Assembly: GCA_963697995.1 (NCBI GenBank)
Contig: OY969110.1
Location: forward strand, 158,876 to 222,875
Length of the DNA stretch: 64,000 bases
Direction: 5' to 3'
Source of the DNA: an uncultured Chlamydiae bacterium
Lineage (GTDB): Bacteria; Chlamydiota; Chlamydiia; Chlamydiales; JAJFMB01
This document shows positions 52,978 through 55,900 of the stretch, one piece after another. Made by a program: the position numbers and the translations under genes. Numbering within the stretch: position 1 is the first letter of the stretch; every line of letters begins with the position of its first letter. The notes under the pieces were generated by a model. That model was not told the origin of the DNA and did no database searches. It worked only from the letters and a program-made list of their open reading frames with translations.

Positions 52978-55900
52978 TTAAAAGAGCTGAATCAGAGTCG
53001 CGATCATAATCGTAAACTCTCTCTCCCCCTTCTCCTCAAAGCGCGCCCCAAAGTGCGTTCTTGGTTGTTTGCTTTGTATCAAAGCTAAAATGTTCTCATC
53101 GAGAAGAACTGCTCGAATTAAGAAAAACATCGAGTCGTTCTCTGTGTGAACCGCTTGATCATCTAAGTGATCTGCCAGATTTTGACTTAACAAATCTTTC
53201 ATTTCATTGTTGATCGAGGTTTCCCTTTCAGTCAGATACTTAATGACTTCTTTAGAAACAGTCGTTATGGCACTACCATCTCGATTTGTACAAAGCTCTT
53301 TCACAAGCTCCTCTGCACGTTTAGGTAAATCTTTCCAGTTTTTATCTTTTTCCTTTTCAATTTTTGAAATCAATTGTTGAAGGGGGCGAATGGTCTCTCT
53401 TGGAAGTTCCCTCTTCTCCCCTCTTGTAAAGTTCACTTCTCTCGATTTGATATCTTGCGTGTCGTCAAGCTCATCAAATACGGTATAGGTAGGTATGCTC
53501 CTAATCTGTGCTAAAAGCTTTTTGGCTTGAAGACAAAGAGGAACAACATCCGGCAAAAGCTTTCCGTCTTTAATCATCTCTCCAAAGTCGAGATCTTGAG
53601 CTTCCATACTTCCCCGAATCTCTGGCCACTGGATCAACACGTTTCCACGCTTTTTCGCATCTTCGTAAAAATGGAGACGTGCTGTTAAATCTAAAATAAT
53701 ATACTCAAAAGAGCTTTTAGGATCTTTAGCATCGATTTGATAGCGAGAAAACTCCCTATCTTCCAACACATTCCCACCGGCAATGGCCGAGAAGCGCTGA
53801 TTGAAGGAGCTTGCGTTATCCTTAAGAACCGCCTTTGGCACCACATACCGGACGAGGTGTTTATCTTCCTCGTTATAAGTTCTCTCAAGAGCCACCCTTG
53901 TGATCGACATCAAAGGCAGAAGCGCTGTCTTTCCAAAACCCATACGCGCTTGAGCGGCATCGATCGCCTCTTCGTGGTTTGTGTCCAAAATAAGAGAGCG
54001 GAACATTTTGATTTGCAAGACGTTACATCTATTACCGTAATCCTCTTCGAAAGCCAAAAAGGCTCTTTGCATGATCTGCTCTTTTCTCTCATCATCTGTA
54101 AGTTGTTCTTTTAACAAAAGGTCAACCGGGTAGTTTCTTTTAGTTAAAAGCAGCTCCACCATATTTCTCTCCCCAACAAGAGGGGCTTTTTCGATGTTTT
54201 CGATGTGCTGCACTTCTGTTTTATGGAAAAGATGCCTGATCATCGCATTTGAAAGGCGCACCATTTCTTGATTGTTAGCTACTCCATTTTTTGAAAACTT
54301 TGTATAATCTTGAGAAAGAATTGCATACTTTAAGTCGACCATCGAGGCGCCAAACTGTGCTAATTCGCTCTTTAATATGGCTTCACTCTCTAGCTGGATT
54401 TGAAGATGTGTTTTCTTCTCTTCCGCTAATTTTTCTCTAACTTCAGCTTCAAACTCTTTATTTTTAAACTTGATTTCAAAGCCTGACTGCATCGCTCTAA
54501 AGAGGAACGATTCTAATCGACCAATCGCTTGATTTAGCTGTTTTTGACTTAACGGAAGATGGGTTAATTGAGCTCTGATTTCGTTCATTAAAAAGGCAGT
54601 CGTTGCTTTTTCAATCGATTTAACACGGTAATAAGTAGAACTTGGGATCTGCTCGATATACCCTTCTTTTTCTAAGAAAGTGAACACTTTTTGTAACTCT
54701 TTCTCGTTTAGTCCGTAAAGGCCTCGTTTAGTTTTAGGATCGATTCCAAACTCTTGATACAATCCGTCGAGTTTAAACTGTCCAAGCTCTTCCAAATAAA
54801 AGCCGATCACTTGATCAGGACTGTGTTTTTGAAACTCCTTGATCAACGGTTTTTGCTGTTTTGATAGCAATTGGTCAGCATCTTTGTGGCAAGAGGTGAT
54901 AGCATGAGAAACTCCCAACCTTTCCAAAAGACTTCTTGCTCCCAAATACTGAAACTCCTCGGCAACAACCGGCTTCTCTTTTCTTTCCACTTGTCCTTTG
55001 AGAAGAGCCGCCTCTTGTAGGTAATTATGCTCTGAAAGAAGCCCCGTTTTTCTCCAAAGAGCAATCACTTCCAAAGAGGGGCGCTCTTTTAAGCCTTTTA
55101 ACTTATTTTCTATATCATCTTTTGAGGCCTTATAACGATCTTGTAACTCCTGAACCTTTTTCTTTTTGTCTGATAAAGGCGTATGGGAGAGATCTTGAAC
55201 TCTATAGCTTAAATCTAAATAGCGGATCAAATTCAACATCGTTTCAAGATTTGGATTTATTTTATCCCCTTTACCTTGATAAAGGTCAATTGCTTGATTC
55301 AATAACCTGATCTCTGTCTTTTTAAGAGGAGCATCGATCCGGTATTTAGCTAAATTTTTTACGAGGAGAAGAGGATCTGCATCCCCTTCAATCCCTTTTA
55401 AAGTGATCGCAAGAGCTGCCTGAAGATCTCTTGTCGCAATCGATGCCTTGGTCGATTCGTAGAAAAGAACCGCCTCGACAGGCTTATCACAACACGCTTG
55501 ATACTGATCTAAGATTTCTTTATATACTGTCACATAAAGATCGATTTGTTTTTGATCCGTTCCCGCAATACTTTCAATTAATTTATTATTCATAAATTTT
55601 AGAGCTGCGAAATAAATTTCGTAATTCACATATTCCGCTTCATATCCATCAAAATTTTCGATAAATTCATCTTGTAAATTAGCAGGAATTAACATTTTTA
55701 TCTTATCTAAGTCTTTACCGTGTGCATCATCTGAAAGAGGAGCTAAGAAAGTTTTCTCTTCAAATTCAATCAGCTGATTTTCGATATTTGCTATTCGCTT
55801 TTCAAGTTCTCGAATCTCATTTTTTCCAAGATGGGAGCGCCCTTCTAAAGTTTTTATCTCTTTGCGATAGTTCAACTCTTTCAACTTGGTCTCCATAGCG

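Follow-up and report, generated by a model that had tools for sequence, protein, structure and literature searches.

Are two very long open reading frames (ORFs) that follow each other in different frames in an uncultured chlamydial genome two genes, or one gene that has been broken, and if it has been broken, by what? The question is raised by a 64,000-nucleotide (nt) stretch of the genome of an uncultured Chlamydiae bacterium (assembly GCA_963697995.1, contig OY969110.1, positions 158,876 to 222,875; hereafter the window), in which ORF1, on the minus strand from 60216 to 52978, is followed by ORF2, called on the same strand from a GTG at 52972-52970 to 49397. Comparison with homologues shows that the two ORFs are one gene of about 3,606 codons, whose reading frame changes at a run of five G residues (G5; C5 on the plus strand) at 53029..53025. 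We consider it probable that the break is a real, very recent deletion of 1 nt in the sequenced DNA. It is a frameshifted gene of an already known kind, and there is no designed recoding signal: the break is an ordinary frameshift and calls for no new mechanism.

The geometry of the junction is simple. ORF1 starts at an ATG at 60216, ends with a TAA at 52980-52978 and encodes 2,412 residues, the last of which are ...FGARFEEKGEREFTIMIATLIQLF*, and ORF2 as called encodes 1,191 residues. The frame of ORF2 is that of ORF1 shifted by -1, and the overlap begins at the G5 run, which is followed by (AG)4 (local minus-strand sequence TTT GAG GAG AAG GGG GAG AGA GAG TTT); both points had been made in the original prediction and both hold, as does its observation that slipping back one base after GGG gives GGA GAG AGA GTT TAC, which is the downstream frame. 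Two of its counts need adjustment, in that the ORF2 frame is open for 21 codons upstream of the GTG rather than 20 (it is open from 53035 and reads GEGGERVYDYDRDSDSALLIAVPYEGTD), and the overlap is 55 nt, or about 18 codons, rather than 19 codons. The open -1 frame, which makes up the 3' third of the gene, lies on the minus strand at 49397..53035 (1,212 codons and a stop), and is closed upstream by a TGA at 53036..53038, so that no frame change can lie further 5' than this codon; it is genuine coding sequence from about 53028. ORF1 makes up the 5' two-thirds of the gene, and its codons 1-2397 are genuine coding sequence, followed by an out-of-frame tail of 15 codons (53025..52981 on the minus strand, EREFTIMIATLIQLF) before the premature TAA. 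The called GTG had been said to lack a Shine-Dalgarno (SD) sequence, and indeed the 22 nt before it (TGATTCAGCTCTTTTAATTGCC) hold no SD-like purine stretch, but this is a weak argument because about half of the first-start calls in the window lack one too.

That the two ORFs belong together and that the break lies at the G run, as had been proposed, is confirmed by collinear homologues encoded in single ORFs. For these comparisons we used a repaired protein of 3,606 residues, made by joining ORF1 up to FEEKG to GERVY... in the ORF2 frame, and a junction core of the 900 residues around the frame break as search query. Scanning one genome per species gave 44 related loci, all of them in Chlamydiae or Legionella/Legionellales, and in tblastn searches the junction is crossed by a single high-scoring segment pair (HSP) at 42 of the 44; at 36 loci more than 700 of the 900 core residues lie in one HSP with no stop. 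With the repaired protein as query, a single HSP in a single frame covers residues 1-3606 at locus L002, 1-3603 at L004, 78-3605 at L014, 167-3605 at L003 and 604-3606 at L006, and the ORF2 region is collinear with the C-terminal third of the product of each of the five. Open frames at the homologous loci are 3,600-4,800 codons long (3,623-3,892 at L002, L004, L014 and L003). An exhaustive HMMER search of 1.84 billion cluster representatives found dozens of proteins of 3,263-5,187 residues that match the core across the junction in one stretch, and the only entries identical to it at 100% are the two window ORFs themselves, which match core residues 1-453 and 469-900. A word-indexed protein search with the core returned five Chlamydiae fragments that span the junction in one chain; this type of search seems to miss giants (it returned nothing above 1,568 residues and missed ORF1 itself) and is unsafe for claims that giant proteins are absent.

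The ends of the gene are equally consistent with a single unit. The N-termini of the window protein and the L002 protein are collinear (MGVLLNRHTFKYLDLP... in the window and MNILHHRHTFHYLDIP... at L002), and so are their C-termini. The N-terminal collinearity supports the ATG at 60216 as the start, and an SD-like AAGGA element is also present there. A promoter-like TTGATT-17-TATAAT lies upstream of ORF1 at 60288-60260, although such sites are no commoner than expected by chance, and no promoter-like site was found near the junction. The closest homologue is 47% identical overall and 69% identical in the core. None of the genes that neighbour the gene in the window was found next to the homologues, and we therefore refer to these as collinear full-length homologues and not as positional orthologues.

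Homology confines the frame change to a very short interval. Similarity to the homologues continues in frame 0 up to ...THFGARFEEK (FEEK at 53040-53029, with the Lys codon AAG at 53031-53029), and resumes in frame -1 from GERVY (53026-53012, with GAG AGA GTT TAC at 53023-53012) through to LLIAVPY, and because of these limits on the two sides the change must lie inside two Gly codons, for which five bases are present in place of six. The junction reads FGARFEEKG|GERVYDYDRDSDSALLIAVPY in the window, FGARFIERDGERVYFADPDSESTLLIAVPY at L002, FGARFVERDGERVYFQDPDSGASLLIAVPY at L003 and FGVRFEERGGKRHYFFDQPSNSSSLIAVPY at L007. Addition of one G (G5 to G6) yields a single ORF of 3,606 codons, and the FG...PY spacing is then 30 residues, the same as at 12 homologous loci. 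We also considered a repair by removal of one GA (2 nt), which gives a spacing of 29 residues and is rejected, as no homologue has it. L007, from a Simkania metagenome-assembled genome (MAG), carries an in-frame GGG GGG at the exact position of the break, and other homologues encode this spot variously as GAC GGG, GAT GGC, GAA GGG or GCT GGT. There are only six runs of five or more G or C residues in the 10.8-kb gene, and the chance that one falls within the interval of about 14 nt defined by homology is about 0.01; the coincidence of the G5 run with the interval in which the frame must change is thus more than chance.

The break also falls in the best-conserved part of the gene. Identity to the L002 protein is 62-78% over residues 2000-2800 and 34-52% elsewhere, and invariant alignment columns lie at most 7 residues upstream of the break (K436 and G443 are upstream) and at most 16 residues downstream of it. 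The break is situated downstream of a Walker A-like GFGKT (53926..53940, minus strand; ORF1 residues 2093-2097), whose columns are nearly invariant in an alignment of 40 sequences and which lies inside a weak DUF3638 match, and of a Walker B-like FDELDD (53461..53478, minus strand; ORF1 residues 2247-2252), in which F300, D301, E302, L303 and D304 are invariant in alignment A2. The ORF1 stop and the annotated GTG both lie inside the LLIAVPY motif (52984-52964), in which the alignment shows no variation at L466, P470 and Y471 and almost none at L465 and I467; the GTG (52970..52972, minus strand) encodes its V. The last 15 codons of ORF1 have a counterpart in no homologue. Judged by this pattern of conservation, the split corresponds to no natural domain boundary, and the annotated GTG is an artefact of ORF calling and not a natural N-terminus.

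We propose that a Gly-Gly pair encoded by GGG GGA has become GGGGA (G6 to G5) at 53029..53025 through the loss of one base, for which replication slippage in the short homopolymer would be a likely cause. The expected product would be a truncated protein of 2,412 residues in which the Walker A and B motifs are retained, the remainder of the conserved core is missing and the last 15 residues are nonsense, and the 3' third would go untranslated save for rare slippage or weak re-initiation. There is no sign of decay beyond the break: the 1,191 codons of ORF2 are open, and strongly conserved residues are kept at 96 of 97 positions upstream and 80 of 84 downstream, with all mismatches conservative, from which it follows that the event either happened very recently or did not happen at all. 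In favour of a real event, a Logan assembly of sequencing run ERR11563597 contains a 15,972-bp contig that matches the window at 100% identity along 15,643 bp, and the G5 run lies within this match. A perfect match of this length to a k-mer assembly suggests that the reads are accurate and that the G5 is not an artefact of the assembler or of polishing.

Several considerations weigh against a real deletion. ERR11563597 may hold the deposited genome's own reads, in which case the match excludes an error of assembly or polishing but not a systematic base-calling error, and the intact downstream half fits a consensus error in an intact gene equally well. No conspecific DNA was found in metagenome contigs, either with an exact variable-gap pattern or in a locus search with a single protein; the exact repaired protein of 3,606 residues is likewise not present in a collection of 15 billion proteins. 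The closest parallels are the singleton frameshifts described in the GeneTack survey (Antonov et al. 2013, PMC3711429), where a lone transition joins two sides that match contiguous parts of intact proteins and its position is not conserved. Nothing essential differs here, except that the base count is repeated in a separate assembly of a read set, and a real mutation becomes more likely for that reason.

The most serious alternative is that the genome is truly G6, with an intact gene of 3,606 codons, and that one G was under-called in sequencing or polishing. The break is at a homopolymer and is perfectly restored by one G, the downstream half shows no decay, singleton frameshifts whose BLASTp matches are intact proteins of other species are expected by Antonov et al. 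(PMC3711429) to be sequencing errors in most cases, and frame changes, several of them beside homopolymers, occur in other assemblies of this giant family. However, the same G5 is found in the separately built Logan assembly within 15.6 kb of perfect identity, and no further frameshift is evident in the 64-kb window among about 45 ORFs, of which rpoC (1422 residues), rpoB (1270 residues) and other long ORFs are open. Two G6 runs within the same gene are in frame, and these, together with the open ORFs, indicate that the assembly seems not to be prone to homopolymer errors. We therefore regard a consensus error as less likely than a real deletion, and on balance as unlikely, if well short of negligible.

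The original prediction offered three explanations, of which a homopolymer indel, either real or artefactual, stands, whereas phase variation and programmed -1 frameshifting fare poorly given a tract of 5 nt and the fact that no homologue shifts frame; even taken together, we consider these last two improbable. Phase variation would have the tract alternate by slipped-strand mispairing between G6 (ON, full-length) and G5 (OFF), with the sequenced population mostly OFF. A homopolymer shift in a giant gene of an intracellular bacterium invites such a reading, although a role of the protein in host interaction is a guess, and there is a chlamydial precedent in the cytotoxin gene CT166 of Chlamydia trachomatis, which is switched ON and OFF by a 9/10-G tract at its 5' end (gene positions 29-37) that is heterogeneous in reads (Borges et al. 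2015, PMC4514472). The two cases share a G homopolymer in a large chlamydial gene whose length decides whether a full-length product is made. They differ in that the tract here is only 5 nt long (6 nt if intact), below the length of at least 7 nt that Antonov et al. (PMC3711429) take as the signature of homopolymer contingency loci; it is situated two-thirds into the gene, at codon 2397 of 3606, and not near the 5' end; it is not conserved among homologues; and there is no known heterogeneity, with only G5 seen in both assemblies, which may share one sample. We consider phase variation very improbable.

Programmed -1 ribosomal frameshifting, or transcriptional slippage, would allow both a 2,412-residue and a 3,606-residue product to be made from G5 DNA, and we think this less probable still. 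In the case of dnaX, -1 frameshifting uses an A AAA AAG heptamer with an SD-like element about 10-14 nt upstream and a hairpin downstream, and the shift yields a shorter product beside the full-length one from an intact gene. The junction resembles dnaX in its -1 relation and in having a tRNA able to re-pair one base back: tRNA-Gly on the GGG at 53028-53026 can re-pair perfectly at 53029-53027 to give the homologous KGGERVY. An SD-like GAGGAG just upstream and the intact state of both halves of the gene also speak for this reading. In contrast to dnaX, there is no tandem-slippery X XXY YYZ heptamer (read in frame 0, the site offers G AAG GGG and G GGG GAG), so that only a single tRNA-Gly could re-pair; the SD-like GAGGAG is misplaced, ending 3 nt before the run and not about 10-14 nt away; and no stimulatory hairpin is evident, the 95 nt downstream having a minimum free energy of -16.6 kcal/mol compared to a shuffled mean of -17.3 (z = 0.24, pseudoknots not being modelled) and a 181-nt context giving z = -1.12. 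Nor is the shift conserved. It is seen in none of the 42 junction-spanning loci and in no junction-spanning library representative, and broken copies elsewhere shift at other positions, whereas recoding sites are expected to be conserved in clusters (PMC3711429, where the dnaX type of shift is treated as well). A G5 run is also too short for transcriptional slippage when compared with the long A/T runs known to support it. The predicted Lys-C peptides are GGERVYDYDRDSDSALLIAVPYEGTDTPK for the full-length or trans-frame product and GEREFTIMIATLIQLF for the truncated C-terminus.

A variant of these ideas is that a real G5 acts as a low-efficiency -1 slippage site or as a slow G5/G6 switch, giving mostly the 2,412-residue protein and a little, tunable, 3,606-residue protein. 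We give this a slim chance, on a par with phase variation; if true, it would represent a newly arisen, lineage-specific dosing of a giant protein and would explain why the downstream 1,191 codons have not decayed. Finally, an evolved split into two separately translated genes, with ribosomes that terminate at the TAA re-initiating on ORF2 at the GTG that starts 5 nt further on, is hardly credible, in that although stop and start lie no more than 10 nt apart, a signature of translational coupling in the survey of Antonov et al. (PMC3711429), and both ORFs have been deposited as separate proteins, no homologue is split at this site, the GTG lies within the conserved LLIAVPY with 21 homologous codons upstream in the same frame and has no SD-like element, and the terminal 15 codons of ORF1 lack a homologous counterpart.

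If the deletion is indeed real, it would be a loss-of-function allele that arose very recently in a giant conserved gene of an intracellular bacterium, and would add one small observation of gene loss in progress. The main value of the finding is in annotation. The public record lists, on a contig of 2,051,574 bp, two separate hypothetical proteins of 2,412 and 1,191 residues, and these two coding sequences should be annotated as one frameshifted gene; the 1,191-residue entry begins falsely within a conserved motif, and so can mislead definitions of domains and families.

The encoded protein appears from its sequence, which shows a P-loop NTPase core, to be a giant protein of the DUF3638 type, of a kind found in environmental chlamydiae and Legionella. 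Residues 2086-2277 of ORF1 have a weak match to DUF3638 (PF12340; 20.8-22.7 bits compared to a gathering threshold of 31), and residues 19-42 of the -1 frame, immediately beyond the break, have a weak match to DUF3645 (PF12359; E = 0.013, 15.2 bits compared to a cut-off of 25). DUF3638 and DUF3645 are normally consecutive on one polypeptide, and in the window their matches lie in different frames. DUF3638 is matched at E <=1e-3 by 38 of 40 family members (best 4.6e-12), and searching with the core also brought up two distant relatives of about 3,000 residues, P0197 and P0200, whose scores of 65.6 and 86.2 bits exceed the Pfam threshold. The family resembles the Pfam DUF3638/DUF3645 proteins in being giant (about 3,000 residues or more) and in its arrangement, with DUF3638 over the Walker A and B motifs followed by a DUF3645-like LLIAVPY.... 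Pfam describes these families as eukaryotic, whereas the homologues fetched here are all bacterial, from Chlamydiae and Legionella.

Profile searches of PDB sequences with alignments A1 and A2 gave no sequence-related solved structure (no match at E <=10). An AlphaFold2 model of the 900-residue core, made with six sequences, has a mean predicted local distance difference test (pLDDT) score of 56, with the junction region below 50, and is too poor to classify; Foldseek comparison of this model with the PDB gave nothing at E <0.1. The motifs GFGKT, DELD, SGT and Q..RG.D may tentatively recall a superfamily 2 (SF2) helicase. In the literature DUF3638 is mentioned only in passing, in five papers, and run ERR11563597 in none.

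Members of the family are 3,300-5,200 residues long and, among the genomes fetched, occur only in Chlamydiae and Legionella/Legionellales, often in several copies per genome; the family is thus common to two intracellular lineages, and its distribution may merit separate study. Whether through error or through decay, members of this gene family are frequently disrupted in assembled genomes. The two copies in one Rhabdochlamydiaceae MAG (LVE1205-5), at loci L015 (6884-14645) and L019 (1259-6303), change frame 8 and 5 times, in several cases at homopolymers; a single frame change occurs at L011 near residue 2900 (about 12544-12580), and the ends of P0157 are out of frame. Two features of the window protein lie away from the core. 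A low-complexity stretch rich in Ala and Gln (AQAQAQAQAQAEA; 51125-51163, minus strand; ORF2 residues 625-637) possibly acts as a flexible linker, and similar A/Q/E-rich stretches occur in P0002, P0003 and P0158. A hydrophobic stretch near the N-terminus (ARALAIAVEMIAFAALSALRLS; about 60010-60075, minus strand; ORF1 residues about 48-69) might anchor the protein in a membrane.

Elsewhere in the window, two other candidates for broken genes were considered and rejected: the ORFs that overlap at 43588-44911 proved to be two distinct genes, Vut_1 and PAP2, and a DUF1207 ORF runs off the end of the window. The 1.1-kb gap at 31325-32457, between a 953-residue ORF and a Trp/Tyr permease gene, is filled by a 281-bp tandem repeat (4.0 copies, 97% matches), for which an Rfam search gave only sub-threshold chance matches. 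In the segment from 13905 to 26490, rpoC, rpoB and further ORFs form an intact cluster, after which come tRNA-Trp, a 393-residue ORF and tRNA-Thr. The order resembles the one commonly seen with ribosomal-protein genes, nusG, secE and tuf, rpoB being the only one of these genes checked by search. RpoB is 83-84% identical to its counterparts in Parachlamydia, Protochlamydia and Neochlamydia and 96% identical to a Joint Genome Institute (JGI) metagenome protein, and these identities place the source of the window as an environmental chlamydia near the Parachlamydiaceae.

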